Shown here: positions 1-25,987 of the stretch, piece by piece
Layout of the letters: each line of letters begins with the position of its first letter
How positions within the stretch are numbered: the stretch's first letter is position 1
The notes under the pieces: generated by a model
Seen by the model: the letters and a program-made list of their open reading frames with translations, nothing else
Told to the model about the DNA's origin: nothing
The model's database searches: none
DNA from: an uncultured Hyphomicrobiales bacterium
GTDB lineage: Bacteria; Bacteroidota; Ignavibacteria; Kapaibacteriales; UBA2268
Direction: 5' to 3'
Assembly (NCBI GenBank): GCA_964628675.1
Contig: CAZVPQ010000001.1
Coordinates: forward strand, 1-33,920
Length of the DNA: 33,920 nucleotides
Made by a program: the position numbers and the translations under genes

Positions 1-186
1 ATAAAGAGCAAAATAATCAAAACTATTAATGAAGTACAAAATGGTACCTCTTTTGACGAAGCCATAAGAAAATATTCAAACGATGAAGAACTTATTGGAA
101 AAATCAAATCTATAATTGCAAAAGTTAAATCAGGCGAATTTGACATCAATAAATATATGCAATTTTCGGAAAAATTTAGCAGATAA
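1..186 (+). CDS. 3' end of a small helical protein gene (start lies outside the window); paralog of the disrupted ORF at 26099-26303; possibly a Nif11-like leader/precursor family member
   Basis: Frame +1 is open from the window edge to TAA at 184-186: IKSKIIKTINEVQNGTSFDEAIRKYSNDEELIGKIKSIIAKVKSGEFDINKYMQFSEKFSR*. About 50 aa align with the reconstructed minus-strand product of 26099-26303. nt 52-90 match the reverse complement of 26162-26200 at 37 of 39 positions (hand count). Confidence 0.55.
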   Translation: MKSKIIKTINEVQNGTSFDEAIRKYSNDEELIGKIKSIIAKVKSGEFDINKYMQFSEKFSR

Positions 187-5394: not shown

Positions 5395-8300
5395 AGTTGA
5401 ATTTGATCAACAAATAGCTATTGTAGGTATGGCTTGCCATCTCCCCGGAGCTAAAAACACAGAAGAATTCTGGAATAATTTGATAAACGGTGTTGAATCA
5501 ATTTCAACATTTACAGATGAAGAATTATTGGAAGCGGGCGTTGAACCTGAATTAATTCAATCACCAAATTATGTAAAGTCACGAGGGATTATTAATGGTG
5601 CAGAATATTTTGATGCATCTTTCTTTGGTTTTACTCCTCGCGAAGCCGAATTAATGGACCCACAACATAGGGTATTCCTCGAATGCGCCTGGCACGCTCT
5701 CGAAGATGCCGCTTATAATCCTGAAAAATCAAATGCCCGTATTGGAGTTTATGGTGGGACAGGAACACCATGGCATCTTTTCCAAGCTAATATGAATCCC
5801 GAAGTTAAAAAATTTGCGAGCGGAACTTCTATTGTTACAAGTAATGATAAAGATTATGTTGCAACAAGAGTTTCCTATAAATTAAATTTAACCGGTCCGA
5901 GCGTTAATGTTCAGTGTGCTTGTTCTACTTCAATGGTTGCGGTAATTTTAGGAATGAATAGTTTATTAAATTATCAGTGCGATATGGTACTTGCCGGAGG
6001 TTCGACAATAGAACTACCTGAAAAAAAAGGATATATATATCAACAAGGAGGACTTGAATCCCCTGACGGTCATTGCCGTACTTTTGACGAAGGAGCTAAT
6101 GGCACTGTATTTAGTCGAGGTGCTGGAGTTGTATTGATAAAAAGATTAAACGATGCTATCAAAGACGGAGATAATATTTATGCCGTAATAAAAGGTGGTG
6201 CAATTAATAATGATGGAAATAAAAAAGTAGGTTTTACAGCTCCAAGTATTGAAGGACAAATTGAAGTTATTACGGAAACTATTGAATTAGCTGATATAAA
6301 ACCTGAAACAATAAGTTATGTGGAAGCCCACGGTACTGCAACTCAAATTGGCGACCCAATCGAAGTATCCTCTTTGATCCAAGCATTCGAGCAATTTACA
6401 GACAAAAAACAGTTTTGTGCAATAGGGTCAGTTAAAACAAACATAGGACATACTGACTCTGCATCAGGAGTATCATCTCTGATTAAAGCGGCTTTGTCAT
6501 TAAAAAATCGCAAAATCCCCGCATCATTGAATTATTACAAACCAAATCCCCAGATTGACTTTGAAAACAGTCCTTTTTTCGTTAATACGGAACTTAGAAA
6601 ATGGATTCCTAACGGTTCTCCTCTAAGAGCTTTGGTTAATTCGTTTGGTGTTGGTGGCACCAATGCTTGCGTTGTACTCGAAGAAGCACCGGATATCAAA
6701 AGCGATGATATAGATATTCCGAATAAATTGCTTGTGCTATCGGCAAAATCAAGAGAAGCATTAGAGCAAAGCAAAAATAATCTTGCAAATTATATTGGAG
6801 ACAAGCAAAATGTTAATCTTAATGATTTAGTTTATACTTATCAAATCGGAAGGAAATATTTTAATAACAGAGGATTTTTGACTTTTAAGAATAGAGATGA
6901 GCTTCTTGAGAAATTGAATAATGAAAACAGCCTGCAAGTGAATCTTCTGGATAAGGAAGATAAACCTATTGTATTTATGTTCCCAGGGCAAGGCAATCAA
7001 TATGTTAATATGGGGCTTGAACTCTATAATAATGAAAAGGTTTTTAAAGATGCCGTTGATGAATGTTGCAAAATCATTCTTGAAGAGTTCGGATTTAATT
7101 TAAAAGATATTATTTATCCTAATAACGAAAATTATAATCTCGCAATTGAAAAAATCAATCAAACTAAATACACTCAGCCCGCATTATTTGTTATCAGTTA
7201 TGCACAAGCAAAATTATTAATGTCTTGGGAAATTGAACCTGATGTTATGATTGGGCATAGCGTTGGCGAGTATGTAGCCGCTTGTATTTCAGGTGTTTTT
7301 TCTTTGAGAGATGCGGTTAAAGCAATTACAAAAAGAGGCGAACTGATACAAAGTTTGCCGGGAGGCTCTATGTTAGCTATATTGCTGTCCAAAGACGAAG
7401 TCCAACCTTTTTTGTCTTCGACAGTTGAAATTGCCGCGATTAATAATCCTTCGTTAACAGTTGTTGCCGGACCTGACGAAGATATTGATAAATTAATCGA
7501 AGAATTAAGCAGCAAAAAGATATTCAATAAAAGATTATCTACTTCTCATGCTTTCCATTCCCAAATGATGGAAGCTATTATGCCCGAGTTTGAAAAATAC
7601 TTTTCTAATATTGATTTGCATCCACCACAAATACCGATTATTTCCACTGTAAGCGGTGATACAATGGCAGAGCAACAAGCACTTGATATACATTATTGGG
7701 TTCAGCATGTTAGAAAAGCAGTTGTGTTTGCTTATGCGGCAAAAACTTGTATTGATGATAAACCTTATGTATTTATAGAAGTAGGTCCCGGACAGTCTTT
7801 GGAATCTGCTGTGAAAAGACAATTAGATAGAGATTCCGAACATTCTGTTATCAGCACAATGCCATCTGCCAATGACGAGATTCCCGATTTGGAATATTTG
7901 ACAACTGCATTGGGACGACTTTGGATTTCAGGAGTTAGTATTTCTTGGCAAAATTATTATAAAGAACAAAATCGCAAAAGGATTTCCTTGCCGGGCTATC
8001 CTTTTGAAAGAAAACCTTATTCAATCGATTTTTCTAAAAATAAAGACATTAAAGTAGAAAAAGCTAATCAAAAAGAATCTGATATTGGAAAATGGTTTTA
8101 CTTGCCATCTTGGGCTAGGTCTTCAAGTTTAGATTTATTGATGAATGATCAAGATTATGAAAATAAGAATTGCTGGTTAATCTTTAACGATGACTTAGGT
8201 TTGGCGAAAACTATCAGTGAACAACTTAAAAACGATGGAAAAGATATAATCAACATATTTGCTTCCGATAAATATCATCAAGAAAATGAGAATACATTTT

Positions 8301-10993: not shown

Positions 10994-12145
10994 ATGGCTG
11001 ATTTATCAAATCGTTTGGCAAATTTATCTCCTGAGAAAAGGGCTTTGCTTTTACAAAAGCTTAAATCTCAAAAAAATGGAGATTTGAAACCAAGAGCAAA
11101 TATAAATAAAGGCACATTCGTCCCCGGAAAAGATGAGAATTTTAGTTGCGAGATTATCCAACCCGGAAATTTTACTAACTTGGATTTTCGCAGGGCAAAT
11201 TTAACAGCACCTAATCCTTGGCAAATTCAAATTAAAGCCAAAGCCGCAAGTTTGAATTTCAGAGATTTAATGATTGCTATGAATATGTATCCCAAGACTC
11301 CGGGAGTACCTTCCGTTATGGGGTCGGATTATTCAGGCATTGTAAGCGCTGTGGGAAATAATGTAAAGAATTTTAAAATTGGTGATGAAGTTATTGCTTT
11401 GTCCGCCGGAAATTTTTTAGAAAATGGAAGTATCGAAGAGAATAGCCATTTTTGTGGTTATTTCAATGGTTCCGAAAAACAAGCTGTACATAAACCTAAG
11501 AATATTAATTTTGAGGAAGCGGCTGGTATTCCTACTGTATTTCTTACGAGTTACTATTCATTGCTTAATGTAGCCAAATTACAACTGAATGAAAAAGTAT
11601 TGATACATACAGCCACCGGAGGTATAGGATTATCAGCTTTACAAATTGCCAAATGGATAGGAGCCGAAATATTTGCTACTGCCGGTTCAATTGAGAAACG
11701 TGATTATCTTAAATCATTAGGTATTAAAAACCCGATGGATTCACGTTCGACAGATTTTGCTCGAAAAGTTATGGAATTGACTAATAACGAAGGTGTAGAT
11801 GTTGTACTTAATACTCTTTCCGGTGAAGCAGGAAATATGGGTTTAGAGATTTTATCTGATTTTGGTTGTTTTTTGCAAATTGATAAAAAAGATATTGCGC
11901 AAAATAATAAGTTAGAGCTTAGATATTTTAACAAAGGTATAAGCTATACGGCTATTGATTTATCACTATTTTTAAAACAACCCGATAGATTGAATAAAAT
12001 TTTTAATGAAATAATAAATCATATAAGAGAAGAACATTTTAAACCGATAAAATATAAAGCATATTCTATTTGGGATTTGGGCGAAGCACTGACTTATATG
12101 TCCCGTTCACAACATATTGGTAAGATTGTTTTAAAATATGATTAA
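10994..12145 (+). CDS. Stand-alone enoyl reductase (MDR / quinone-oxidoreductase-like PKS_ER type) with an N-terminal docking-like extension
   Basis: MDR/ER motifs: SLNFRDLM, GSDYSGIVSAVG, IGDEVIAL, VLIHTATGGIGLSALQIAKWIGAEIFATAGS (NAD(P)H fold). The first ~30 aa (MADLSNRLANLSPEKRALLLQKLKSQK) are not part of the ER fold and resemble the N-terminus of the next NRPS. Confidence 0.85.
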   Translation: MADLSNRLANLSPEKRALLLQKLKSQKNGDLKPRANINKGTFVPGKDENFSCEIIQPGNFTNLDFRRANLTAPNPWQIQIKAKAASLNFRDLMIAMNMYPKTPGVPSVMGSDYSGIVSAVGNNVKNFKIGDEVIALSAGNFLENGSIEENSHFCGYFNGSEKQAVHKPKNINFEEAAGIPTVFLTSYYSLLNVAKLQLNEKVLIHTATGGIGLSALQIAKWIGAEIFATAGSIEKRDYLKSLGIKNPMDSRSTDFARKVMELTNNEGVDVVLNTLSGEAGNMGLEILSDFGCFLQIDKKDIAQNNKLELRYFNKGISYTAIDLSLFLKQPDRLNKIFNEIINHIREEHFKPIKYKAYSIWDLGEALTYMSRSQHIGKIVLKYD

Positions 12146-12182: not shown

Positions 12183-15100
12183 ATGAAAAAAGAATTAGCA
12201 AATCGGTTGTCATCAATGACGCCGGAAGAAATAAGGTCTCTTCTGAAAAGAAATCCAAAAAAATCTTTGGATAAGGCAAAAGAAAAATTAAAAATGGAAA
12301 GAAATGAGAAAGAGAAATATCCACTTTCAAGCACTCAGGAAAGGACTTGGTTTTTATGTCAATTAAATTCGGGAAGCCCAATAAATAATAATGCTTTTGC
12401 CATTAAAATGAAATCAAAAACCAGAGTAAAACCGGAAATCTTTGAACAAGCTCTGAAATTACTTGCCGATAGACATGAAATTTTACGGACATCATTTCAT
12501 AGTAGGAAAGGACGACCATTTCAAAAAATTCATAAATCCGTTGATTTCAAAGTTGAATATTTAGATTTACAGCATTTATCCAAGAGAAATAGAGAGGATA
12601 AAATTATTGGGGAAGCGGTCAAAGAAGCACATAAAATATTTGATTTATCTAAATGCCCATTGCTTAATTTTAAAATATTACATATTGAAAAAAATGAATA
12701 TGTCTATTTGATAACTCCACATCATATTATTTCCGATGGCTGGTCAAATGCTATTTTTTCAAGAGAATTTATACAGATATATACATCTTTGGTAAATAAT
12801 ACATCATTAAATCTTCCTGAATTGAACTACCAATATGTTGATTATGTCAATTGGGAAAAACATTGGTTACAAAGTGATAAATATAAAGAATACTTAAACT
12901 ATTGGAAAAAACAACTTGAAAATATAGAAGTTTTAGAGTTCCCGAAAGATTTCCAAAGACCAAATATTATGTCCACTGATGGCGCGATGGAAAGCATAGT
13001 TCTTGATGATAATTTAGCAAAAGAATTAAAAGATTTTAGCCAGCAAAGAGCTGTAAATTTATTTTCTACGCTTTTATCAATATTTAATATTCTTCTCTAT
13101 AAATATACAGGGCAAAATAATATTACAATCGGTACTCCGATGGCTAATCATAATAAAAATGAATTCCAAAATGTTATGGGAATGTTTTTAAATACTTTGC
13201 CTATACCTACTGTAATCAATGAAAATAATACATTTGTGGAATATATAAATCAAACAAGTAAAATTAGTCAGGGGGCATTTATTCATCAGGAGTTACCTTT
13301 TGACAAACTTATAGAAGAATTAAAACCTCCACGTGATATGAGCAAGCACCCTTTGTTCCAAATTATGTTTGTTTTTCAGAATATTCCTTCTCTTTATAAG
13401 ACCAATGGTATTGATATGATACCATTGAAAATCGATTATCATTTATCCAAATTCGATATTGATTTATGGGTCGAAGAAGCTGACAATAAAATGATAATAT
13501 CTCTTAAATATTTTACTGATTTATTTAAAAAATCCACTATTCGAAGGTTTTTGAAGCACTATCAAATTTTAATGAATGATGCAGTTTCAAACCCAAATAA
13601 AATGATTGTTGATTTGAATTATATTCCTAATGATGAAAAAATATTTTTGTTATCAAATGCTTCAAAACAAAAATTTAAAAATAGTGATAAAACGTTTATT
13701 GATTATTTTGAAAAGCAAGCAAATTCGCATAAAGAAAATTTAGCAGTACAATATCTTGAAAAAACAGTTTCTTATCAAGAGTTGAATGCTCTTGCAAATT
13801 CATTAGCTCATTATCTCAGAAAAAAAGGTATAAAAAAGGGAGATATAGTAGGTCTTATGACAAAGCGTTCCGAAAAGTCAATTATTGCTATGATAGGAAT
13901 AATGAAATCCGGTGCCGCGTATTTGCCTATTGATTCATCTACTCCTGCCGAAAGATTAAAATATATTATTGATAATTCTAAAATTAAAACAATTCTTACA
14001 GAGAAAATATTTAGTAAGAAGTTAAGAGATTATGAAATAGAACAAGTCCTTATTGATGAAAATTGGCAAAAAATCATTAATGAAGATAAAAATAATTTGG
14101 ATATAGATATTAATCTTTCCGATTTAGCTTATATTATCTATACATCAGGAACTACCGGAATGCCAAAAGGTGTTTGTATTGAACATAGGCAATTACTTAA
14201 TTATACTTTGTCAATATGGAGCAAGATGAAACTCCCGGGTATTAACCGTTTTGCAACCGTTTCATCATTGTCGGCGGATTTGGGCAATACAATGATTTTC
14301 CCTGCTCTCTCCAATGGTGCCTCGGTTAATATCATAGATGATGATTACCTGACAAATTTAGAACTTTTTTCGTCTTATATTGCAGGAAATAAAATTGATT
14401 GTATTAAACTGACTCCTTCACATCTCAATAGTTTACTGACGAGTGAAAATAAATCTGTTTTGCCTGAGAAACTTTTAGTTTTAGGAGGGGAAACATTGTC
14501 TTGGCAATTAATTGACAGGATCAGAAAACTTAAACCCGAATTACGAATCATAAATCATTATGGTCCAACAGAAACTACAACCGGTGTTTTGACTTATGAA
14601 ATCCCATTGTCGAATTATAAGAAAAAAGAACAATTTTCAGTTCCGATTGGATTCCCACTTGATAATTCGCAAATTTATATTTTAGATAAATATTTGAAAG
14701 TGGTCCCTATCGGAGTTAAAGGCGAAATATATATTGGAGGTGAAAATCTTGCAAATGGGTATATGAATAATTCGGAGCTAACGCAAAAATATTTTATTCA
14801 AAATCCTTTTAACATAAATGAAAGATTATATAAAACGGGAGATTTTGCGAAGTACCTTGATGACAACACAATTCTTTTTCTTGGTAGGAAAGACAAACAA
14901 GTTAAAATACGTGGATATAGAGTTGAATTAGAAGGAATTGAACAAATAATTTCTAATCATCAAGATATTATGCAGGTTGTTTTATTAAAGAAAAGTAAAA
15001 CCGAACAGCTGATTGCATACATTAAGTTTAAAGAAAACACAATAATAACAGAAGAAAGTTTAAGGAATTATCTAAAACCCAAACTGCCTACATATATGAT

Positions 15101-16316
15101 TCCCGATATTTTCATTTTTGTGGACGAGATTCCGATTACGAAAAATGGGAAAATTAATTTTGATAAATTGATTGCAATTGGCGAGAGTAAATCTGTTGAC
15201 GAACCATCTTCTCAAGCTCCGAGAGATAATTTAGAGTTGGAAATAACAAACGTTTGGAAAAAAATATTAAGCATAAATAAAATTGGTATAAATGATAACT
15301 TTTTTGAAATAGGTGGTCAATCTTTGATTGCTGTTGAATTATTTTCCGAACTACATAAGAAATTTGATATTGATTTGCCACTGTCAGTTTTATTTGAAAA
15401 CGGAACTATTAAAGATTTAGCAGAAATTATCAGGTCAAAAAATAAATATAGTAATAACTCTCCATTGGTAACAATTCAAGAAGGGGATAATAAAAGTCCG
15501 ATATTTTTAGTCCACCCTGCCGGTGGAAATGTGTTAAGTTATTATGATTTTAGTCAATCAATGGGCAAATCTTATCCCGTTTACGGCTTGCAATCAACTT
15601 TGGAATTGGATTGGAATTCTCCTGATTTCTCCATTAATAAGATGGCAAGATATTATTTAGACGTGATATTATCTTCGGGATTTAAACCTCCTTTTATTTT
15701 CGGTGGCTGGTCAATGGGTGCATTAGTTGCTTATGAAATGGCAATTATATGCCAAAAAGAAAATATTTCAATGCCATTAGTTATTGTAATCGACCAAGTA
15801 GCACCTGAAAATGACAAAGTTAAAAATTATCGACAAATCAATGAATTAGATCGTCTAACAATTTTTGCAGATAAAGTAGGGCATCTAATCAAACACAAAC
15901 TTGATATAACAAGAGAGCAATTAAACAATCTTACTGCAAAGGAAACTGCGAATTTGTTTTTAAATGAATTTAAAAAACATAATCTTGTGCCAGCTGATGT
16001 GCAATTAGAAAAATTCAAAGATTTTCTTGATATTATGATAAAACATAATGAAGTAACGATGGATTACAATCCCGAAATATACAATGGCAAGGTTCTAATT
16101 ATTAAAGCAGAGCATTCATTTGAAATTGATTCTTCATTGAAAAAAGCTTCGGAATTATTTAGACCAAGAGCCAAAGATTTAGGTTGGCAAGTATATATTA
16201 AGAATAATGTAAATATCATTCTTGTACCGGGCGATCATATTTCTATGATGACAAAACCTAATATCAATATTTTAGCAGAAAAACTAAAACATTGGATTGA
16301 AGATAATAATTTATAA
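12183..16316 (+). CDS. Non-ribosomal peptide synthetase termination module: (docking)-C-A-T-TE; A-domain code resembles Asp
   Basis: C (~12315-13622): HHIISDGWS. A (~13695-15173): IIYTSGTTGMPKG, NHYGPTETT, YKTGDF, GRKDKQVKIRGYRVEL, NGKINFDKL. T (~15216-15437): FFEIGGQSL. TE (~15481-16307): FLVHPAGGN, GGWSMGA (GxSxG), VPGDHISMM. The hand-extracted specificity code is DLTKVGHTGK. Confidence 0.95.
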   Translation: MKKELANRLSSMTPEEIRSLLKRNPKKSLDKAKEKLKMERNEKEKYPLSSTQERTWFLCQLNSGSPINNNAFAIKMKSKTRVKPEIFEQALKLLADRHEILRTSFHSRKGRPFQKIHKSVDFKVEYLDLQHLSKRNREDKIIGEAVKEAHKIFDLSKCPLLNFKILHIEKNEYVYLITPHHIISDGWSNAIFSREFIQIYTSLVNNTSLNLPELNYQYVDYVNWEKHWLQSDKYKEYLNYWKKQLENIEVLEFPKDFQRPNIMSTDGAMESIVLDDNLAKELKDFSQQRAVNLFSTLLSIFNILLYKYTGQNNITIGTPMANHNKNEFQNVMGMFLNTLPIPTVINENNTFVEYINQTSKISQGAFIHQELPFDKLIEELKPPRDMSKHPLFQIMFVFQNIPSLYKTNGIDMIPLKIDYHLSKFDIDLWVEEADNKMIISLKYFTDLFKKSTIRRFLKHYQILMNDAVSNPNKMIVDLNYIPNDEKIFLLSNASKQKFKNSDKTFIDYFEKQANSHKENLAVQYLEKTVSYQELNALANSLAHYLRKKGIKKGDIVGLMTKRSEKSIIAMIGIMKSGAAYLPIDSSTPAERLKYIIDNSKIKTILTEKIFSKKLRDYEIEQVLIDENWQKIINEDKNNLDIDINLSDLAYIIYTSGTTGMPKGVCIEHRQLLNYTLSIWSKMKLPGINRFATVSSLSADLGNTMIFPALSNGASVNIIDDDYLTNLELFSSYIAGNKIDCIKLTPSHLNSLLTSENKSVLPEKLLVLGGETLSWQLIDRIRKLKPELRIINHYGPTETTTGVLTYEIPLSNYKKKEQFSVPIGFPLDNSQIYILDKYLKVVPIGVKGEIYIGGENLANGYMNNSELTQKYFIQNPFNINERLYKTGDFAKYLDDNTILFLGRKDKQVKIRGYRVELEGIEQIISNHQDIMQVVLLKKSKTEQLIAYIKFKENTIITEESLRNYLKPKLPTYMIPDIFIFVDEIPITKNGKINFDKLIAIGESKSVDEPSSQAPRDNLELEITNVWKKILSINKIGINDNFFEIGGQSLIAVELFSELHKKFDIDLPLSVLFENGTIKDLAEIIRSKNKYSNNSPLVTIQEGDNKSPIFLVHPAGGNVLSYYDFSQSMGKSYPVYGLQSTLELDWNSPDFSINKMARYYLDVILSSGFKPPFIFGGWSMGALVAYEMAIICQKENISMPLVIVIDQVAPENDKVKNYRQINELDRLTIFADKVGHLIKHKLDITREQLNNLTAKETANLFLNEFKKHNLVPADVQLEKFKDFLDIMIKHNEVTMDYNPEIYNGKVLIIKAEHSFEIDSSLKKASELFRPRAKDLGWQVYIKNNVNIILVPGDHISMMTKPNINILAEKLKHWIEDNNL

Positions 16317-16333: not shown

Positions 16334-17383
16334 ATGGAAAAAACATCTAATAATAAAGATAAAACAAAAGAATATGCTTCGATGATTGACAATTTTATTT
16401 ATGGCAATTGGCTCACAAGTATAACTTATACCTTTGCCGAATTAGCAATCGCTGATATTTTATATAAAAATCCTTTGGATATTGATGAGATTAGCAAAAG
16501 GACTGATACAAATCCGAAATTACTTAAAAGATTTCTCAGATGTGCCGCTAATCTTGGTTTTGTCAGAACAAGCGAAAACAAATATTACATTGCACCAATG
16601 GGAGATTTGTTAAGAACTGAGCATCCTCTCAGCAGAAGGGACGCCGCAAGACTCAACGGTGCTAATTATCGCTATCAGCCTTGGGGTTATCTTGTTGACA
16701 TTCTAAGGCAAGGCAATAGTCAATCGTTCTCACCAACTTTTGAAAAAGGTAGTCTCAATTATCTATCCGATAAGCCTGAATTACTTGAAGTATTTCATAA
16801 TGCTATGACAAGAATAACCGAAGAAGAAAATTTGCCGATTGTGTCTTCTTATGATTTTTCAAAGTTTAAACATATTGTAGATATTGGTTGTGGTCTCGGT
16901 AGTTTTCTAAAAACTATTCTCAGAGAAAATGAGCATATTAAAGGCACAATGTTTGATTTGGAATCGACATTAAATATGGAAGATAATATTATTGAAGATG
17001 ATTTAAAAGATAGACTTGATAAGGTATCAGGCGATTTTTTTAATGACACTATTCCTAATGCTGATTTATATATTTTGAAAAATGTAATTCATAATTGGAA
17101 TGAAGAAAACGCTTTAAAATTATTGAAAAATATTTATACTTCTATGTCTTCAGATAAAAATAATGTTGCAGATAAACGATTGCTTATAATTGAAAATACT
17201 ATTAAAGATAATGATGATTATAATATTGCAAATTGGATGGACTTGAATTTTATGATTTTAGTTGATGGTGCCGAAAGGTCTGTTAACGACTATAAATCTT
17301 TTGTTCAGGAAGCCGGTTTTAAAATATCAAATGTTATTCCTACTCCAACAGGGAGAGATATTATTGAATTAACAATAGCATAA
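16334..17383 (+). CDS. SAM-dependent O-methyltransferase (COMT-like / Methyltransf_2 family)
   Basis: An N-terminal dimerisation-like region is followed by the SAM motif VDIGCGLGSF, then DLYILKNVIHNWNEENALKLLKN (catalytic His context) and a C-terminus typical of small-molecule O-MTs. It lies 17 nt downstream of the NRPS stop. Confidence 0.85.
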   Translation: MEKTSNNKDKTKEYASMIDNFIYGNWLTSITYTFAELAIADILYKNPLDIDEISKRTDTNPKLLKRFLRCAANLGFVRTSENKYYIAPMGDLLRTEHPLSRRDAARLNGANYRYQPWGYLVDILRQGNSQSFSPTFEKGSLNYLSDKPELLEVFHNAMTRITEEENLPIVSSYDFSKFKHIVDIGCGLGSFLKTILRENEHIKGTMFDLESTLNMEDNIIEDDLKDRLDKVSGDFFNDTIPNADLYILKNVIHNWNEENALKLLKNIYTSMSSDKNNVADKRLLIIENTIKDNDDYNIANWMDLNFMILVDGAERSVNDYKSFVQEAGFKISNVIPTPTGRDIIELTIA

Positions 17384-17390
17384 AATTTTT

Positions 17391-18122
17391 ATGAAAAATA
17401 TTCTTGAATATTCGACAATTTTGGAAATGGAACTTGATGGAGAAAGTATTAAGTCGGGATTGCACATCGTTTTCGAAAACAATTTTTACAAGAAAATAAA
17501 TCCGAATGAATATCTTCATAAAGATGAATTAATTGAATTTGATAAAATTTCGAGTGATATTGTAAAGCATAATTTTTGTGCCGGTCGATACTCCGCAAAG
17601 AAATCAATTAGTTTGATTACTGGCGAGCAAGATTTAAAAGAGATGATTATTGAGCATGGAGTTTTCGGTTTTCCTATTGTCAAAAACTCAGAGAATTTAC
17701 AAGTTTCGATAGCTCATACCGATAGTTCTGCAGTAGCGATTTGTTTTAACGAAAAATCCCCGATGGGCATAGATATAGAAATTATAAAAGAAAAACAAAT
17801 TGATGTTATTGAAACACAGCTGACTCAATATGAGAAAGAATTAAGTAAGGATTTGGATATAAGCACAAATATTTTCTTCCATCAATTATGGACAAGCAAA
17901 GAAGCACTTGGCAAGGCAATAAAAACCGGTTTTACAATTCCAATGCTATTGTTTGAGGTTAATTCTATTGAAGACAATAAACAATTTATGCTTTTATTCT
18001 TCAAACATTTTGAACAATTTAAAGCGGTTTCTCTAAAGATTAATGAGAACTATATATTATCTATTGTGCTTCCGAAAAGTATTGATATTAATAATTTATT
18101 TTCCATAAATCAAAATTATTAA
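17391..18122 (+). CDS. 4'-phosphopantetheinyl transferase (Sfp type)
   Basis: Motifs: MGIDIEIIKE (G-x-D-x-E) and WTSKEALGKA ((W/F)xxKE(A/S)xxK). The 243-aa size fits Sfp-type PPTases. It is the last gene of the plus-strand operon. Confidence 0.8.
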   Translation: MKNILEYSTILEMELDGESIKSGLHIVFENNFYKKINPNEYLHKDELIEFDKISSDIVKHNFCAGRYSAKKSISLITGEQDLKEMIIEHGVFGFPIVKNSENLQVSIAHTDSSAVAICFNEKSPMGIDIEIIKEKQIDVIETQLTQYEKELSKDLDISTNIFFHQLWTSKEALGKAIKTGFTIPMLLFEVNSIEDNKQFMLLFFKHFEQFKAVSLKINENYILSIVLPKSIDINNLFSINQNY

Positions 18123-19581
18123 TACCGTCGGGTTCACTTGGTAATTGCCCGATTTGATATTTCAAATTAACCAAATCAATAGCAATCTGAACTTTTAAAT
18201 TTTCATAAGTAATGTTTGCTTTTATATAATCTTGATGAGAATTTGTTACGTCAATTTGAGTAGCCAGGCCCATTTTAAATTTCTCATATTCGTTATAATA
18301 AACTTGTTCGTATAATTTCACATTTTCTTTTTGGTTATTATACATTCCCAATGCATCATTAATACCACTAATGATATTTTTAACATTATTTTTTACATCG
18401 AATGCGAATTTATTTAAACTAATATTTTGTGATTCCAACTCTGATTTCTTTGAAATATATATACCCTCATAAACTGCTTTTTGAAAAGGTAGCATATATG
18501 ACAAAGACAAAGTAAAACTGGAACCCGGAAAATGTCCGTCAATTGCACTCAATAATTTATTCCAATCCTCATTTTGTTTTAAACCGTAATAATTATATTG
18601 CAAATTCAGATTTATATCTTCTTTGAGGTCATTTGATGCGCCCTTTACTTCCAATCCAGTAGCTGAAACGTTCATTGCAAGACTTTGATAATCTTTTCTG
18701 TTTTTAATAAGAGAATCAATATTTGTATTTATAAATTGAAAATAATTTGTAAAATTCAATTTATCAAAGTCGGGATATTTATCTAAAAATGTAGGAATTG
18801 TCTTATTGTCAGTATGTCTTACGATACCTAAAATTTGATTTAAATTATACAATGAATTATGCAAAGATTTCTCGGCATTGGTCATTTCAATTTTGATACT
18901 GTTGTAATAGGCGTTGGTTCTAAGCATTTGAGATTTCGGGAGCTGGTCTTTATCCACTAAAGTTGCTATATCGTGTTTGTATTTCTCGACATATTCAGAT
19001 ATTTTTTTATAGAAATTATAAACATTAGTGTTACTGTAGGCAACAAGATAAGATTCGGAAATAAATTTAATCAATTGGCTAATTCTATAAGCGTAATCTT
19101 TCTTTTCGGCATTGTATTGAAGTTCAGATGCTTTTAAATTTGCATTATTTGCATTGTTTTCACCGAGACCTTTGAAAAGCGGCAAATCAAGCCCCAGCCA
19201 AACACCTTCCGAATTATTGATTGATTGAGGATTAATAACATTTGTCCTTGATAAGTTCAAACCTGAATTAAGCGATAAACCGTAATTAGTGGGCAGAACA
19301 AATTCAGTGTTGAAATCAAACATATCTTTGTAGGAAACAGTCGGGTCGTTGCCTGTATTTGTATTGAGACTATAATGAAAAAACGGGTCGAATCTCCCCT
19401 TGTTCCTCAAGACTTTACCTTTACTATTTTCGATTGCCGTTTTTTGTAATTTAATATCAAAATTATTACTTATACCCTCTTTAATTAAATTTTTTAAAGA
19501 AAGTTGCATTGTTGTATTTTCTTGTGCAACAAAATTAAAGCCGAGAAGCAAAATAAAATAAATTATATATCTTTTTTTCAT
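18088..19581 (-). CDS. TolC-like outer-membrane efflux protein
   Basis: N-terminal signal peptide (MKKRYIIYFILLLGFNFVAQ). The 497-aa length and the two-repeat helical/beta composition are typical of outer-membrane factor proteins. It is the last gene of the HlyD-ABC-ABC-OMP operon. Family assignment rests on context plus composition rather than sharp motifs. Confidence 0.7.
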   Translation of the reverse strand: MKKRYIIYFILLLGFNFVAQENTTMQLSLKNLIKEGISNNFDIKLQKTAIENSKGKVLRNKGRFDPFFHYSLNTNTGNDPTVSYKDMFDFNTEFVLPTNYGLSLNSGLNLSRTNVINPQSINNSEGVWLGLDLPLFKGLGENNANNANLKASELQYNAEKKDYAYRISQLIKFISESYLVAYSNTNVYNFYKKISEYVEKYKHDIATLVDKDQLPKSQMLRTNAYYNSIKIEMTNAEKSLHNSLYNLNQILGIVRHTDNKTIPTFLDKYPDFDKLNFTNYFQFINTNIDSLIKNRKDYQSLAMNVSATGLEVKGASNDLKEDINLNLQYNYYGLKQNEDWNKLLSAIDGHFPGSSFTLSLSYMLPFQKAVYEGIYISKKSELESQNISLNKFAFDVKNNVKNIISGINDALGMYNNQKENVKLYEQVYYNEYEKFKMGLATQIDVTNSHQDYIKANITYENLKVQIAIDLVNLKYQIGQLPSEPDGINNFDLWKINY

Positions 19582-19629: not shown

Positions 19630-22527
19630 CTATGCTAACTGACGTTTAGCTAAATTCTCGAAAAATCCTTTTTGTACCATAAGTTCTTCATAGTTACCTT
19701 GCTCAACTACTTTCCCATTGTCCATAACGAAAATAATATCTGCATCTTTAATCGTACTTAATCTATGGGCAATAACTATTCTTGTAGCATTTAATTTATT
19801 AACGTAATCACTAACAATTTTTTGGGTTTCGTTATCCAAAGCCGATGTGGCTTCATCAAAAATGAATATTTTCGGATTTCTCACCAATGCACGGGCAATA
19901 ATTATTCTCTGTTGTTGACCGCCGGATAGTGTGCCACCACCTGCGGGGAGTATAGTTTGCATTTTCTGAGGAAGATTTTCAATATCTTTATCACAACCGG
20001 CCATTTTTGCCGCTCTCCAAGCATCCTCTTCTGTCAATGTAGAATTACCGATAATATTAAATAAAATCGAACCTTGCATTATTTTACTATTCTGCAAAAC
20101 CACGCCTAATTGTTCTCTTAAATCTCTAATATTAATATCAGAAATTTCTTTGCCGTCAAAGAAAATTGAACCTGAAGCGTATTTTTCAAACCCGAGTAAT
20201 ATACGCATCAATGTTGATTTTCCTGAGCCCGAACTACCGACAAGAGCAACAAATTGCCCGGCTTTCATTTTTAAGCTAACATCTTTCAATATTAAATCCT
20301 GATTATCCTCATATTTAAAATTAATATGCGATACTTCGATATTACCGTTCAAATCTCCCGGATCTTGTTTGTCGTCAGCTTCCATCGCGGCAGTTAATAT
20401 CGGTCTAATCAAATCAAACGTCGGTTTAATTGTAATAAATGGTACTGTCGCCATAGCCATCTGCAATAATGCACCTTGAAAACTACCAAACGCAGTATTA
20501 AAAGCCAAGAAATCACCCATTGAAATTAGCGAATGAGTAAATAAAGAATGAACTTTGATGAATATAACCATAGAGCCAAACACAGGAAATATTGATGTGA
20601 AAACCGCCGCCCAGACTAATAATTTTCTTTTTGCTACATAATTTTCTTTTTGCTTGGCAAATTTCTTAGTCCATAATGCAAAAACACTATCCTTGCTGTC
20701 CGTAATTCTAATCTTATTTATACCACTTAAAATTTGCAGAAGAAAACCCGATATAATGGCTTCCATTCTTTTAATTTGAACTATATATTTATATGCAAAG
20801 AAACTAATTGTTATCGTAAATGCAACAATAATTAATCCCAAGAACAAAGCAAAAATTGCTAATTCCCAACTATAATAAAATAGTAAAGCAAAATAGAAAA
20901 CCGAAAAAATTGCCGAGACCAAAGAATGAATAACTACATTTGAAATTGATTCTTTTATTTGCTCAATGCCCATACTTCTTTCAGCCAAATCACCCGGATT
21001 ATACTTTCTGAAAAAGTTCACTTCGAGAGATAAAATTCTGTCCCAAATAGCAGATTGCAATTTATAACTTGCCGTGCCTTGCGCCCTGAGTATAGCAATT
21101 GATTTGGCAAAATTAAGTATAGCCATTACGATAGCTACCGAAACAAGTAGTATTGCTATTTGCAATAGTTCAGGTGTACTCCCTGACGGAATAACATTAT
21201 TAAAGATATAACCGACAGAAATAGGCAATAGCAATGCTAACAATGCCGCCGCAATTCCAATTATGAAAAATGCTATTATGTCTTTATAAGTAAACTTCAA
21301 TGCAAATTTCATCATATCTTTGCCTGTGATTTTCTTCTTAGGCAAAGGCGTATAGAAGCTATAAGCATAAGGCAGCAGCTTTGTTGCTATATCTTCGTTT
21401 ACAATAGTTTTTGTATGATTTTGAATATCAATTAAATAATAAGATGAATTATTTTTCGGTATCAAAGCCACAGGAGTTTTATCTTCTTTCCAAAAACCGA
21501 GCAAAGCACCGTGAAAACTATTTTGCCAATTAAAATCAAGGTTTACTTTTCGACTTCTAATATTAGAAGTTTTTAAAATCATCTGGAACTGAGTTAATTT
21601 CGAGTTCTTTTTTGGTTTAGGTTTTTTAAATTCAATTTTTTCATATTCCCCGACGATAGAGCAAGCTTTGAATAATAAATCCAAAGAATTATCAATATGA
21701 TCTACGAATAGTTTTTGCTCAGTACTTTTTTCACCGGGAATAATTTCTTTTAAGTTATAAATAGCATTTGCTTTGGTTTTTTCCTTATATTTCGCCGCCA
21801 CATTAATCTGATTTAAAGAGTCTTGCAAATATTCCGTATGTAATGAATTGAGGATTTTATCAATTTCTTTGTTGAAATAAAATAAGTAGTCTGTAAAACT
21901 ATCTTTCTGGATAATTTCTTCAGTCGAAAATTGATTAATCTCGGCAGTTTCATAAAATTGATACCAAAAGTTTTTTGCACTTGGCAAATAAGTTTTTTTG
22001 TCTGATTTTATTTCATATTTATCAAACAATTTAATTGAAGTATCCGGTAGGTCAAACCATATAATTTCATCGAAATTAGGCGGACAAAAAACCGAACCTT
22101 TTTTAACTGTAATATTTTTTTGAGTATCACTAAAAGTAAAGAGCGAGGGCATACCGTATTTATTTATACGATTTGCCATTTTATCAATCCAACTATTGAT
22201 AAGTCCGCTAAACTCATCAATATTCTTTTTCGATATTTCATTAATTGAGATCTTGTCTAATTCAACAACTTCGGTTTCGGAACTAGTATTGATAACAATA
22301 TCATAATTTTCTTGCATCGGGGAAGAAGGTATTAGAAAAGGTGCTTCAATACGTGCAATAAAATTTCGTTTGCCATAGTCACCATCTTTTTTTTCTATAT
22401 AAAATATATCACTTTGACCTTCTGCTAAATAATAAAATACTTCTTCTTTGTTCTGCAGAGAAAACAGAGTGTTGCTTTTTAATTTATTATCAGCATTTGC
22501 AATATTTAATAATATTTCTTTTTCCAC
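19630..22527 (-). CDS. ABC transporter permease/ATPase with a ~400-aa N-terminal extension (NHLP/NHLM bacteriocin-export ABC2-like subunit)
   Basis: NBD: GSSGSGKST (Walker A), LSGGQQQRIIIARAL (signature), IFIFDEATSALD (Walker B), IAHRLST. Six-helix TMD from ~aa 408. N-terminal extension: beta-barrel-like segment (aa ~25-70), then a degenerate C39-like segment (LDFNWQNSFHGALLGFWKEDKTPVALIP...YAYSFYTPLP) as in this exporter family. GTG start at 22527, 1 nt after the upstream stop. Confidence 0.85.
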   Translation of the reverse strand: MEKEILLNIANADNKLKSNTLFSLQNKEEVFYYLAEGQSDIFYIEKKDGDYGKRNFIARIEAPFLIPSSPMQENYDIVINTSSETEVVELDKISINEISKKNIDEFSGLINSWIDKMANRINKYGMPSLFTFSDTQKNITVKKGSVFCPPNFDEIIWFDLPDTSIKLFDKYEIKSDKKTYLPSAKNFWYQFYETAEINQFSTEEIIQKDSFTDYLFYFNKEIDKILNSLHTEYLQDSLNQINVAAKYKEKTKANAIYNLKEIIPGEKSTEQKLFVDHIDNSLDLLFKACSIVGEYEKIEFKKPKPKKNSKLTQFQMILKTSNIRSRKVNLDFNWQNSFHGALLGFWKEDKTPVALIPKNNSSYYLIDIQNHTKTIVNEDIATKLLPYAYSFYTPLPKKKITGKDMMKFALKFTYKDIIAFFIIGIAAALLALLLPISVGYIFNNVIPSGSTPELLQIAILLVSVAIVMAILNFAKSIAILRAQGTASYKLQSAIWDRILSLEVNFFRKYNPGDLAERSMGIEQIKESISNVVIHSLVSAIFSVFYFALLFYYSWELAIFALFLGLIIVAFTITISFFAYKYIVQIKRMEAIISGFLLQILSGINKIRITDSKDSVFALWTKKFAKQKENYVAKRKLLVWAAVFTSIFPVFGSMVIFIKVHSLFTHSLISMGDFLAFNTAFGSFQGALLQMAMATVPFITIKPTFDLIRPILTAAMEADDKQDPGDLNGNIEVSHINFKYEDNQDLILKDVSLKMKAGQFVALVGSSGSGKSTLMRILLGFEKYASGSIFFDGKEISDINIRDLREQLGVVLQNSKIMQGSILFNIIGNSTLTEEDAWRAAKMAGCDKDIENLPQKMQTILPAGGGTLSGGQQQRIIIARALVRNPKIFIFDEATSALDNETQKIVSDYVNKLNATRIVIAHRLSTIKDADIIFVMDNGKVVEQGNYEELMVQKGFFENLAKRQLA

Positions 22528-22528
22528 T

Positions 22529-24712
22529 TTAACTAAGTTTTATAAGTTTATAATAATAACCTTCTTTGTCTTGAATCATCTCATCGTGAGTACCTCTTTG
22601 AACTACCTTGCCTCTGTCCATAACAATAATCTCATCACAATCCCTAATAGTACTCAATCTATGAGCTATAATAAGAGTAGTACAACCTCTTTTTCTTATA
22701 TTGCTATCAATGATTTGCTCCGTGTTGGGGTCTAATGCACTTGTAGCTTCGTCTAAAACAAGTAAAGTTGGATTTTTTGCCAAAGCTCTTGCTATCTCAA
22801 TTCTTTGTTTTTGACCACCGCTAAAATTAGCACCGCCCGGTGCAACCATACTATCATAAGCATTAGGTCTCACCGAAATAATATCGTGAATAGCGGCATC
22901 TTTGCTTGCTTCAATTATATCAGATTTTTTGACATTCTTATTCCACATCGTGATATTGTCATTAACAGTACCCATAAAAAGGAAAATATCTTGATCGACC
23001 ATAGCCATAGAATTGCTTAATACTTCCAATTGATATTCTTTTAATTCCTTGCCGTCAATAATAATTTTCCCGTCCCAAGGTTTATACAATCCCATAGCAA
23101 TTTTTGCTATTGTTGATTTACCGGAGCCTGAACCGCCAATCAAAGCAACTCTTTTACCGGGTTTAATATCTAAAGAAAAATCTGAAATTAAAGGTTCGGC
23201 AAAACTATCATATCCGAAGGTAATATTTTTTAGTTCCAAATGTCCCGTAAGTTTTGCTTCTTCCAATAGAAATTCTTTTTTTCCAATTCTTTCTTCATTA
23301 ATAAAAACCGGGTCCAGCGGATTGCTCATAGCGTCGTCAATAGTTCGTACATAGCTAATCGCTTCTTCGATTTTGCCACCCATTCCGACAAGTTCTTTAA
23401 TAGGTGCCGAGAAATTTGACATTAAACTTTGAAATGCTATTAGCAAGCCGATAGTAATTTCGCCGTGAATTATCAATAAAGCACCGAATGAAATAATAAT
23501 GATATTATTTAAATTTGTAAGAAAATCAGGCAAAGCATCTAGAAATCTATCTGTGAATCCCAATTCTTGGTCTTTGTTTACCATTTCGGCTTGATATCCT
23601 GACCACAAAGCAAAAAAATCATTTTCACTTCCTGTGGATTTAATTGTCTCTATCATCTCCAGACCGATACCACCCGTACTGAATGTTTTACCTCTATTCT
23701 GAAATTGTTTTTGATTTAATGTTATCTTTTTTGTAGAAATAATTTTCAATGTAATTAAATTTATTAAAGCGAACGAAACCCCGATGATAGTTAGAATTAC
23801 ATTGTAGTAAAACATTATTACAGCGAAAAATATTATTGAAAGTAAATTCAAAGTGTTCTTCGCTAAATCTTCAGAGAGTACTTGAGCCAAGGTATCATTG
23901 AGCTGTACTCTTTTAATAATCTCACCTGAATGTCTTTCTTGGAAAAAACTAAGTGGGAGTTTGAAAACATGCATAAAAAATTTAGCTGATTGGCTTAAAG
24001 CCATTTTTATTTCTAATTTCAATAATACTTGTTGCTGTAACCAAGTTACTAAAGCATTAAATACAAGGACAATGCCCATCGCCAGCATCAATGGTTTATA
24101 CCAATCGACTTGCCTAAATACCAAAACATCATCAATAAATACTTTGTAGAATCCGGGGATAAGAATACCCGGTATTATCAATAATAAACCGCATAACAGA
24201 ATAAAAATTAAATCTTTTTTACTACCTGATAATCTTTCGGCAAGAGAAGCAATAACAGATTTCTTCTTGCCACCTGCCACAAAATCATCATTAGTTTGGA
24301 ATTCCATAACCAAGCCGTTAAAAGAAGATTGAAACTCCTGTTTTGTAATTTTTTTTCTTCCGGAATCGGGATTATTGATTATATATTTATCATTTTTTAT
24401 TTCCGTTAAAACGGCAAAATCATTCTGCCCCCAACCGATAATCATTGGGAAATTTTTGTCTTTGATTGATAATAAATCACAAGTGGAAACTTGAGAATCA
24501 AAACCGTATTTTTTTGAAGCAATGATTAAACGTTCTTTGTTTGTTCCATTAGTTGTAACCCCACATTCGGAACGCATTTTCTCAGGTGGTATAAAAAGCC
24601 CATGATAAGCAAATATCATAGACAATGAAACAGCCCCTGATTCAGCGTTTTGAGTCTGTAATATTACCGGAACTTGTTTGCTTTTGTAACTTGTTTTATT
24701 CTTGTTTGCCAT
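22529..24712 (-). CDS. ABC transporter with an N-terminal C39-peptidase-like domain (NHLP/NHLM bacteriocin-export ABC1-like subunit); the peptidase catalytic residues appear substituted
   Basis: N-terminus: VPVILQTQNAESGAVSLSMIFAYHG...ECGVTTNGT...FPMIIGWGQNDFAVL...IINNPDSG, which is a C39 fold pattern. TMD follows. NBD: GGSGSGKST, FSGGQKQRIEIARAL, LLVLDEATSALD, IAHRLST. ATG at 24712. Confidence 0.9.
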   Translation of the reverse strand: MANKNKTSYKSKQVPVILQTQNAESGAVSLSMIFAYHGLFIPPEKMRSECGVTTNGTNKERLIIASKKYGFDSQVSTCDLLSIKDKNFPMIIGWGQNDFAVLTEIKNDKYIINNPDSGRKKITKQEFQSSFNGLVMEFQTNDDFVAGGKKKSVIASLAERLSGSKKDLIFILLCGLLLIIPGILIPGFYKVFIDDVLVFRQVDWYKPLMLAMGIVLVFNALVTWLQQQVLLKLEIKMALSQSAKFFMHVFKLPLSFFQERHSGEIIKRVQLNDTLAQVLSEDLAKNTLNLLSIIFFAVIMFYYNVILTIIGVSFALINLITLKIISTKKITLNQKQFQNRGKTFSTGGIGLEMIETIKSTGSENDFFALWSGYQAEMVNKDQELGFTDRFLDALPDFLTNLNNIIIISFGALLIIHGEITIGLLIAFQSLMSNFSAPIKELVGMGGKIEEAISYVRTIDDAMSNPLDPVFINEERIGKKEFLLEEAKLTGHLELKNITFGYDSFAEPLISDFSLDIKPGKRVALIGGSGSGKSTIAKIAMGLYKPWDGKIIIDGKELKEYQLEVLSNSMAMVDQDIFLFMGTVNDNITMWNKNVKKSDIIEASKDAAIHDIISVRPNAYDSMVAPGGANFSGGQKQRIEIARALAKNPTLLVLDEATSALDPNTEQIIDSNIRKRGCTTLIIAHRLSTIRDCDEIIVMDRGKVVQRGTHDEMIQDKEGYYYKLIKLS
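24293..24673 (-). other. C39-like domain with Ser at the catalytic Cys position and Asp at the catalytic His position
   Basis: Family consensus ...LQMEAxECGAA... reads LQTQNAESGAV here (Ser25, codon TCA at 24638-24640). Consensus ...NHFxVL... reads QNDFAVL here (Asp98, codon GAT at 24419-24421). The oxyanion Gln (LQTQ) and the downstream Asp (NNPDSG) are retained. The alignment was done by eye against remembered ComA/LagD/NHLP-exporter consensus. Confidence 0.7.
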
Positions 24713-24730: not shown

Positions 24731-25987
24731 TTATTCCCAATACTTTTTAAAGATTGGCACAATGAAATCAATAGGAGCTTTTTCTTTAACTGAAACCGAG
24801 CCTAAACATAATGTACCGCTAACAACAGTATAGGAAGGACCTTTTTTGCTTGTCCATTTAAATTTACTAACAGTCGTAGAATCTTTTTTCAACTGTATAG
24901 TTATTCTGTACTTTGGACCTTGGCTGTTTAACAAATTCACAAGCTCATCGTTTTCCAGACTTTCCATAATGCTCGCTGTCGGAGATGAAAAATGATTAAC
25001 TCTAATAACTTTTCCGATTATCTGACCGAATTTTTCTTTATCAACAGTAAACGGATTTATTTGAGCGTCCTGCCCTACTTTAACATCGGCATTGGAATTA
25101 AAAGGAATGTAAAGGTCAACTATATAATTTTTGTTTTTTCTATTTTCTAATTTTTCAATAATAAAAAGTGTCATAGAAGCACCAACAATATCGCCATAAG
25201 AAACCATTTGGGATACTATTATGCCGTCAGTTGGGGCTTTTATCATAGTTTGTCGGTTATATTCTTTATTTAAATCCGCAATTTTTTTCTTTAATACTTT
25301 TATCTGAGAAGCTAAATTATCCTTGTCCATTGATTTTGACAGTTGCCATTCTTCCATAGAAATAGCCAATTGCTTTTGCTGAGCATTAGTATTATTCAAT
25401 AATATTTTTAGGTCTTCAATTGCTTCTTTAGTTAACTCATATTCTATTTTAGTAACAAGTCCTTGTTTAAGAAGTTCTGTCTTTTTTTCTAAATTACTTT
25501 TTTTAAATGAAATTTTTTGTTTTATACTTTTTAATTGCTTTTCGATTTTCTCAGATTCGGTTTTATAAAAGTTAGCTTTTGAAACTCGCTCTTGAGAATC
25601 AGAATTCAGGAGAACGGAATCTTGGAGTTCCAAACCTTTTAATTGCAAATTTACTTCATTTATGGAAGATAAAAGTTCAGGTTGTGTCAATTGTAATAAT
25701 ACTGTCCCTTCTTTTACTGTATCTCCAAGTTCGTGGTATAAATCTACAACTGAACCTGAATACTTCGTATTTACTTTAAAAATACCTGATTTTAGTTTAA
25801 TCAAACCAATTCCATTTACTTTTTGTGGAATTGTTCCCCATAGTCCCCATATCACAGTTAGAAGAGTAAAGGCACTCAGTCCTATAAGCAATATCCAAAA
25901 ACCGGGTTTTGTAATTTTGATTAATCTGTCAAGTCCTTCCGGAGATTGCGTTTCTCTCTGATTCTCTTGGCTATTGTTGTTTTTCAT
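24731..25987 (-). CDS. HlyD-family membrane fusion / secretion protein
   Basis: N-terminal cytoplasmic tail plus a single TM helix (FWILLIGLSAFTLLTVIWGLWG). This is followed by a lipoyl-like segment, a long coiled-coil (aa ~100-240) and a beta-barrel C-terminus. It is the first gene of the exporter operon, 18 nt upstream of the C39-ABC gene. Confidence 0.85.
   Translation of the reverse strand: MKNNNSQENQRETQSPEGLDRLIKITKPGFWILLIGLSAFTLLTVIWGLWGTIPQKVNGIGLIKLKSGIFKVNTKYSGSVVDLYHELGDTVKEGTVLLQLTQPELLSSINEVNLQLKGLELQDSVLLNSDSQERVSKANFYKTESEKIEKQLKSIKQKISFKKSNLEKKTELLKQGLVTKIEYELTKEAIEDLKILLNNTNAQQKQLAISMEEWQLSKSMDKDNLASQIKVLKKKIADLNKEYNRQTMIKAPTDGIIVSQMVSYGDIVGASMTLFIIEKLENRKNKNYIVDLYIPFNSNADVKVGQDAQINPFTVDKEKFGQIIGKVIRVNHFSSPTASIMESLENDELVNLLNSQGPKYRITIQLKKDSTTVSKFKWTSKKGPSYTVVSGTLCLGSVSVKEKAPIDFIVPIFKKYWE

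Follow-up and report, generated by a model that had tools for sequence, protein, structure and literature searches.

A clade of NHLP-type ABC exporters with a putatively inactive C39 domain is syntenic with hybrid NRPS/PKS genes in Bacteroidota

The NHLP/Nif11 system is an export system for peptides made by the ribosome and modified after translation (RiPPs) whose three components are modelled by TIGR03794, TIGR03796 ('Trans-Cleave') and TIGR03797 ('Trans'), and the TIGR03796 family has been described as an 'ABC transporter with peptidase' (PMC2887384). In the active C39 protease LahT150, Cys27, His101, Asp117 and Gln21 have been named as the catalytic residues (PMC6363468). A C39 fold that does not cleave is known from HlyB, whose C39-like domain (CLD) carries Tyr in place of Cys and has a retained His that stacks on a Trp; CLDs are reported to correlate with large RTX cargo (PMC8277102). 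Non-catalytic C39-like domains have so far been described for RTX-toxin exporters. In this study, we analysed a stretch of 33,920 nt (hereafter the window) from contig CAZVPQ010000001.1 of an uncultured bacterium (assembly GCA_964628675.1; GTDB Bacteroidota, Kapaibacteriales), which contains the gene of an ATP-binding cassette (ABC) exporter subunit, ABC1, with an N-terminal C39 domain. The catalytic triad of this domain is substituted throughout, and the clade to which ABC1 belongs is an independent case of a non-catalytic C39-like domain inside the RiPP-exporter (NHLP/PCAT) lineage. The loss of its triad goes together with a change in the genes beside it: leader-bearing ribosomal precursors have given way to an assembly line of non-ribosomal peptide synthetases (NRPS) and polyketide synthases (PKS).

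ABC1 reached 906.1 bits against TIGR03796 (curated equivalog cutoff 853.3), with aa 13–725 aligned to model positions 1–710. The HlyD-type membrane-fusion protein and the partner subunit ABC2 also scored above the equivalog cutoffs of their models (Table 1), and the three genes stand in the same order as in the NHLP/Nif11 system. The domain architecture is shared as well, down to the second subunit's long N-terminal extension, and ABC1 is 43–51% identical to canonical members. Unlike in that system, however, the peptidase triad reads Ser/Asp/Asn instead of Cys/His/Asp, the window contains no precursor of the NHLP or Nif11 type, and the neighbouring genes encode NRPS and PKS enzymes rather than RiPP maturases. 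Judged by profile hidden Markov models and gene neighbourhood, the system is thus a member of the NHLP export family that, as predicted from its sequence, lacks the active peptidase and the NHLP/Nif11 precursor by which the family is defined.

The ABC1 translation contains canonical Walker A, Walker B, signature and H-loop motifs, and its N-terminal part reads ...VPVILQTQNAESGAVSLSMIF...RSECGVTTNGT...IIGWGQNDFAVLT...YIINNPDSGRK. The C39 domain (placed at 24293–24673, that is aa 14–140, in a preliminary description of this DNA) scored 92.6 bits with the Pfam model, for which the cutoff is 22, and has the papain-like α/β fold. The catalytic columns were read from a phmmer alignment to LahT150 (PDB 6mpz; E 1.7e-23) and from a 120-sequence MAFFT alignment. 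At the positions of the nucleophilic Cys on helix α1 and of the His and Asp on the β-sheet, ABC1 has Ser, Asp and Asn (S25/D98/N114 against C27/H101/D117 of LahT150), so that all three triad positions are substituted. The preliminary description had reported Cys to Ser and His to Asp, which the motifs, the codons (TCA and GAT) and both alignments bear out; it had missed the third change, Asn114 for Asp. It was also right about the oxyanion-hole Gln, since Gln19 falls on LahT150 Gln21, in a column that is Gln in 109 of the 110 sequences ungapped there. Given the known catalytic mechanism, we infer from these substitutions that the ABC1 C39 domain is catalytically dead. As for replacement residues, neither Cys50 nor any other Cys or His aligns into the catalytic columns, pairwise or in the MAFFT alignment, which rules them out, and Cys50 (in the ECG of RSECGV) was also rejected as a nucleophile because it is equally conserved in active members.

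Structure prediction indicated that the fold has been kept. The AlphaFold2 (AF2) model of ABC1 aa 1–160 had a pLDDT of 91.5, and its best Foldseek match was 6mpz (rmsd 1.1 Å, TM 0.80/0.90, probability 1.00), followed by PCAT1 and ComA. The domain therefore has the same fold as the active C39 proteases LahT150, PCAT1 and ComA (6mpz, 4ry2, 3k8u; 1.1–2.5 Å rmsd), is 36% identical to LahT150 over the Foldseek structural alignment, and retains both the oxyanion Gln and, flanking the nucleophile position, the E-x-G frame; it differs from them in the replaced triad and in the change of about half of the family-invariant positions. Like the CLD of HlyB (Lecher et al., 2012; PDB 3zua), it is a non-catalytic N-terminal C39 fold, retained although no cleavage is expected, on an ABC exporter that works with a membrane-fusion protein (MFP) and a TolC-like channel. 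Nevertheless, the HlyB CLD is the more distant structure (TM 0.65/0.73, 17% identity), ABC1 scores 407.8 on TIGR01846, far below the cutoff of 725.55, and ABC1 has Ser rather than Tyr in place of Cys and has lost the His that HlyB keeps (Asp in the window, variable across the clade). The comparison with the HlyB CLD drawn in the preliminary description holds in concept only, the domain belonging by lineage with the active PCATs. No RTX gene lies nearby as it does for CLD exporters, the neighbourhood being one of NRPS and PKS genes, and the ABC1 clade is thus an exception to the reported correlation of CLDs with RTX cargo.

The loss of the triad is a clade trait and not private to the window genome. 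Among the 120 best ABC1 homologs, which were found with the full-length protein, the catalytic columns hold Cys in 89, His in 90 and Asp in 113. The closest 30 or so (50–89% identity), which are from Bacteroidota wherever the source carries a name, have E-S-G in place of E-C-G and no His at the His column. In this pseudo-peptidase clade the Cys column is Ser, rarely Ala or Thr, and the His column varies freely among Tyr, Asn, Gly, Asp, Gln and Lys; the 89%-identical homolog of ABC1 has Ser/Asn/Asp where the window has Ser/Asp/Asn. The Ser/Asp pair is accordingly not shared by the orthologs, of which only the Ser is conserved. The third column is mostly Asp, with sporadic Asn (P0001, P0018, P0024) or Ser (four others), so that some lineages are losing the triad Asp independently of one another.

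A neighbour-joining tree (60 bootstraps) from the columns of the transmembrane domain (TMD) and nucleotide-binding domain (NBD) alone recovered the pseudo-peptidase sequences as monophyletic, with subclades A and B and the deeper, Thr-bearing P0113 grouped in 60/60 bootstraps. The Ser codons of the clade include all four TCN codons, TCC being the commonest. It had been remarked that Ser25 is two changes away from any Cys codon, which is true of TCA; TCC, however, is one step from TGC. A further Ser variant, P0015, was placed among the canonical sequences, and its Ser codon, AGC, indicates an independent Cys-to-Ser event. This protein (L025, 3217–5391) combines Cys to Ser with His to Gln in an otherwise canonical-like NHLP exporter, and its locus reads OEP-HlyD-ABC1-ABC2-periplasmic binding protein followed by genes of no assigned function, with no NRPS. 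A profile search of 1.84 billion representatives found Ser at the Cys column in 10 and Ala in 1 of the best 150, two of the Ser variants keeping the His; this library, clustered at 50% identity, gave mostly canonical matches and merged the pseudo-clade into a few representatives, so that it shows only the recurrence of Cys to Ser. Loss of the nucleophile is recurrent in the NHLP exporter family.

Selection on the domain was estimated as dN/dS by the Nei–Gojobori method. The value was 0.077 between the window and the 89%-identical homolog (at a dS of about 1.7, close to saturation) and 0.12–0.27 within the freshwater subclade B, compared with 0.02–0.085 for the rest of the protein, so that constraint on the domain is 3–4 times more relaxed. 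Divided by the identity of the rest of the protein, the identity of the domain gives 0.57–0.72 in the pseudo-clade and 1.0–1.28 in canonical members. When conserved positions were defined as the 51 columns at least 90% conserved in the 89 canonical Cys/His homologs, the window domain kept 24 of them (clade range 17–24); the lost ones include M-E-A after the oxyanion Gln, R-D in the loop CGVSRDG and the N-F that precedes the His. E24, G26, P89, N113 and G118 are invariant in the clade and Ser25 nearly so, and no truncation, frameshift or large indel was found in the domain of any clade member across about 50% sequence divergence. The domain is under purifying selection yet relaxed constraint, that is, maintained and not decaying. 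The earlier view of a maintained dead domain is upheld by the confident model, its 1.1 Å fit, the dN/dS values and the intactness across the clade, although it needs the qualification that constraint is clearly relaxed; the statement that the rest of the domain is well conserved was too strong, fewer than half of the conserved positions being kept.

The hybrid NRPS/PKS cluster occupies the plus strand of the window at 286–18122, and the export operon of four genes, ordered HlyD-ABC1-ABC2-OMP (OMP, the TolC-like outer-membrane factor), converges on it from the minus strand, with the HlyD, ABC1 and ABC2 genes spaced by 1–18 bp. An ABC exporter, a HlyD-family adaptor and a TolC-family channel are thus encoded in one operon, as expected of a tripartite ABC–MFP–OMF system, and the same four genes were present in every related locus of sufficient length. 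When one genome per GTDB species was scanned by pattern, 17 loci were obtained, all from Bacteroidales or metagenome-assembled genomes of Bacteroidota. The genes HlyD-ABC1-ABC2-OMP-NRPS1 were co-directional in all 17 and in the metagenome contigs L005 and L006, making 19 loci, which belong to one subclade; in L005, where the contig is long enough, a PKS follows NRPS1. The NRPS1 there is 33–42% identical to that of the window (for the PKS see Table 1). The deepest branch, L028 (P0113) and L029 (P0247), has the order NRPS2(C-A-T-TE)-PPTase-small gene-NRPS1-HlyD-ABC1-ABC2-OMP (PPTase, 4′-phosphopantetheinyl transferase), with the cassette inside the cluster, and in L029 an O-methyltransferase gene related to that of the window comes directly after OMP. 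The window represents a third arrangement, in which the cassette is inverted and abuts the PPTase gene. The association between the cassette and NRPS/PKS genes has thus been kept through three arrangements and about 50% protein divergence. As a control, a canonical Cys/His relative (P0026, 50% identical) lies in an OEP-HlyD-ABC1-ABC2 locus followed by a Nif11 precursor, YcaO and TfuA genes, an arrangement described for the NHLP/Nif11 family (Haft et al., 2010; PMC2887384). Within the clade, OMP comes after ABC2; in the three loci seen outside it (P0026 and P0022, which are canonical, and P0015), it stands before HlyD.

A leader-bearing or other protein cargo was sought in the window and in related loci. 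No precursor-like open reading frame (ORF), double-glycine (GG) leader gene or NHLP/Nif11 precursor was found in the 33.9-kb window, and the only sizeable non-coding gap (25988–26882) contains no conserved and no GG-containing ORF. Comparison of this gap by tblastx and blastn with the gaps upstream of HlyD in L002–L004 gave chance matches only. Every large ORF of the window could be assigned, and an RTX-like gene was not among them. The small conserved proteins of the relatives have no GG motif and no Nif11, NHLP, RTX or MbtH signature. The preliminary description had found neither an obvious double-glycine leader peptidase nor a GG motif in the small ORFs, and the window indeed contains neither such a peptidase nor a plausible GG-leader precursor. 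It had proposed recognition without cleavage or a non-peptide substrate; the second of these comes closest to the evidence, given the synteny with the NRPS/PKS cluster.

The reading that we favour, with some reserve, is that a RiPP-type exporter was co-opted for a leaderless non-ribosomal peptide–polyketide and kept its C39 domain as a non-catalytic module. Given its synteny with a hybrid NRPS/PKS cluster, the cassette's likely cargo is the leaderless product of that cluster; this cargo and the residual role of the domain are both what we infer from the observations given above. According to this proposal, the exporter would descend from NHLP/Nif11 RiPP exporters, and in the ancestor of one Bacteroidota clade the cassette would have become attached to a hybrid NRPS/PKS cluster with A-T-C-A-T, KS-AT-KR-DH-ACP plus ER, C-A-T-TE, O-methyltransferase and PPTase functions. 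The product of this cluster would carry no leader peptide, and selection for proteolysis would therefore have ended; the nucleophile may then have become Ser, probably via TGC to TCC, and the His column would have become free to vary, with the Asp also lost in the window genome. The C39 fold would have been kept because the transporter still needs it, most likely to serve structure or gating where TMD and NBD meet, and possibly for cargo recruitment; by analogy with PCAT1, its simplest role would be that of a module packing against the TMD and NBD in the inward-facing state. ABC1 and ABC2, probably as a heterodimer, would form with the HlyD-like adaptor and the TolC-like channel a tripartite, type-I-secretion-like exporter that secretes the NRPS/PKS product across both membranes.

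Several points weigh against this proposal. The absence of a precursor from 34 kb is weak evidence, because NHLP/Nif11 precursors can lie far from their exporters. Within subclade A, to which the window belongs, the NRPS link is seen only in the window: L003, L004 and L026 (64–67% identity) show no NRPS gene in their short flanks (0.6–2 kb beyond the OMP gene and 1–4 kb upstream), and the 89%-identical homolog lies on a contig that breaks off within ABC2. Adjacency alone is no proof that the exporter carries the NRPS/PKS product. Finally, the near-universal Ser and the retention of the E-x-G frame are explained neither by a purely structural role nor by the alternatives that follow.

Among these alternatives, the one that survives best, unlikely though we hold it to be, is that the domain acts as in HlyB and recognises and tethers a ribosomal peptide or protein cargo that is left uncleaved, the cargo being unlinked or a small protein of the locus and the proximity of NRPS/PKS genes reflecting co-regulation. 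Cargo-recruiting, non-cleaving C39-like domains are established by the HlyB precedent (PMC8277102, PMC6363468), the domain is under purifying selection, three subclade A contigs show the cassette without a visible NRPS, and small conserved genes do lie near the cassette (73–93 aa upstream of HlyD in subclade B; 83–92 aa before NRPS1 in L028, L029 and the window). These two small-gene families, however, are unrelated to each other, neither occurs in all subclades, and both lack a GG motif as well as any Nif11, NHLP or RTX signature. Half of the canonical invariant positions are changed, including Q-M-E-A by the nucleophile, and the changes differ between subclades, which tells against a conserved groove for leader binding; synteny with NRPS genes, kept through three gene arrangements, also speaks against this explanation.

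A more speculative version of the co-option proposal, which we regard as improbable, would make the pseudo-C39 domain a receptor for the finished peptide–polyketide or for the terminal carrier-protein/thioesterase module, so that release from the NRPS would be coupled to export, with the cyclic-nucleotide-binding (CNB)-like domains of ABC2 as a ligand-gated switch. If true, the domain would be the first of the C39-like kind to take a cargo of non-ribosomal origin, and the reported correlation between CLDs and RTX proteins would be broken.

We also doubt, somewhat more strongly, that the domain is a functionless relic in slow decay, kept only since its deletion would disturb folding or translation of the transporter. 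In favour of this view, the domain evolves, measured against the remainder of the protein, at about twice the rate seen in canonical members, with an unconstrained His column, sporadic loss of the Asp and only 17–24 of the 51 conserved positions kept. Yet dN/dS of 0.08–0.26 is far below 1, the highly confident AF2 model is matched by the absence of truncations, frameshifts and large indels, and five positions (E24, G26, P89, N113 and G118) are invariant with Ser25 nearly so. It is highly improbable that Ser25 is a working nucleophile of a serine-type hydrolase or acyltransferase acting on a peptide or on the NRPS/PKS product: Ser is almost universal at this column in the clade, Cys to Ser arose repeatedly in the family and the oxyanion Gln and E-x-G frame are kept, but there is no general base (the His column being Asp, Asn, Gly, Tyr, Gln or Lys), some members have Ala or Thr for Ser, the triad Asp is also gone in the window protein, and Cys-to-Ser mutants of papain-like enzymes are in general essentially inactive.

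The literature that we covered, which is not complete, contained no description of a link between NRPS/PKS clusters and an exporter of the C39-like or NHLP type. The clade offers a natural experiment on what the C39 domain contributes to an ABC exporter apart from cleavage. In its genomes, automatic annotations as 'peptidase/bacteriocin exporter' and RiPP calls based on TIGR03796 are misleading. The synteny moreover points to a widespread, uncharacterised NRPS/PKS product of Bacteroidota with a dedicated export route across two membranes.

Table 1. Features of the window discussed in the text (positions in the 33,920-nt stretch)
Feature	Position	Strand	Evidence or remark
Small conserved gene, 3′ part, cut by the window start; precedes NRPS1	1..186	+	tblastn and translation
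NRPS1 (A-T-C-A-T)	286..5394	+	orthologs adjoin the transporter in L005–L023, L028 and L029
Type I PKS module (KS-AT-KR-DH-ACP)	5363..10948	+	74% identity to the start of the PKS after NRPS1 in L005
Stand-alone enoyl-reductase-like dehydrogenase	10994..12145	+	
NRPS2 (C-A-T-TE), terminating module	12183..16316	+	orthologs in L028 and L029
O-methyltransferase	16334..17383	+	in L029, OMP is followed directly by an ortholog of 53% identity
4′-Phosphopantetheinyl transferase (PPTase)	17391..18122	+	shares 35 bp at its 3′ end with the convergent OMP gene
TolC-like outer-membrane factor (OMP), last gene of the export operon	18088..19581	-	Pfam OEP, 83.4 bits
ABC2, partner exporter subunit, 965 aa, GTG start	19630..22527	-	TIGR03797, 816.7 bits (cutoff 709.4)
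Segment of ABC2 (aa 281–392), α/β with C39-like topology	21352..21687	-	order of secondary structure parallels the ABC1 domain
Two tandem cyclic-nucleotide-binding-like folds of ABC2 (aa 1–260)	21748..22527	-	AF2 pLDDT 83 and Foldseek
ABC1, NHLP-type exporter subunit (pseudo-C39, TMD, NBD), 727 aa	22529..24712	-	TIGR03796; Pfam ABC_membrane and ABC_tran
C39-like pseudo-peptidase domain of ABC1 (aa 14–142)	24287..24673	-	Pfam PF03412, 92.6 bits, E 2.4e-26
Asn114 codon AAT, catalytic Asp column (LahT150 Asp117)	24371..24373	-	
Asp98 codon GAT, catalytic His column (LahT150 His101)	24419..24421	-	
Ser25 codon TCA, catalytic Cys column (LahT150 Cys27, nucleophile)	24638..24640	-	
Gln19 codon CAG, retained oxyanion-hole Gln (LahT150 Gln21)	24656..24658	-	
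HlyD-type membrane-fusion protein, first gene of the export operon	24731..25987	-	TIGR03794, 263.8 bits (cutoff 156.2)

The AF2 model of the N-terminal extension of ABC2 shows folds that the preliminary description had missed. Although aa 1–420 gave no Pfam match at E ≤ 10 and a best PDB sequence match (E 0.97) that is not meaningful, the two tandem CNB-like folds in aa 1–260 matched regulatory subunits of PKA, CRP and CooA in Foldseek (E 1e-7 to 1e-5). The following segment, aa 281–392, is covered by the alignments to TIGR03797 and the HlyB model and has no conserved catalytic residues; hhalign against the ABC1 C39 profile gave a marginal similarity (probability 11.5%, E 0.0026, 46 columns). 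The degenerate C39-like segment that the preliminary description ascribed to ABC2 is a plausible reading of this modelled topology. The partner subunits at the P0026 (canonical) and P0015 loci are 964 and 966 aa long, the same length as ABC2, and the architecture of ABC2 is therefore a family trait.

The small gene at the window start comprises 61 C-terminal codons, ending in ...IGKIKSIIAKVKSGEFDINKYMQFSEKFSR before the stop codon, and encodes a helical, Lys/Glu-rich product without a Pfam family. A tblastn search with the 83-aa gene of L028 matched window positions 10–156 (41% identity, E 0.001), with the shared motif K-I-x-x-I-V-A-K-V-K-S-G-E-F-D, and homologs of 83–92 aa lie directly upstream of NRPS1 in L028 (3311–3562) and L029 (3337–3615). 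The gene appears to be a conserved member of the NRPS/PKS cluster. In subclade B, two other conserved genes stand directly upstream of HlyD (L005, 7457–8080 and 8322–8543, and equivalent positions in L007–L023) and encode a 207-aa multi-pass membrane protein (57–70% identity across loci) and a soluble protein of 73–93 aa; the two lack Pfam matches, and the window contains neither of them.

Some further features of the locus were observed. The PKS module (within 5363–12145 on the plus strand) has no ER domain and is followed by a separate gene of the zinc-dehydrogenase enoyl-reductase type, which suggests reduction by a trans-acting ER. The cassette is co-directional with the NRPS genes in the relatives and convergent with them in the window, where the 3′ ends of the PPTase (+) and TolC-like (−) genes overlap at 18088–18122, leaving no intergenic space for a terminator between the two operons. 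Genes with Por_Secre_tail domains are neighbours in related contigs. On the other side of the export operon, the region 25988–26882 (895 bp, 20% GC in a window of 30% GC) separates it from a divergent gene for a 1442-aa CoA-enzyme activase and presumably holds the promoters of both units.

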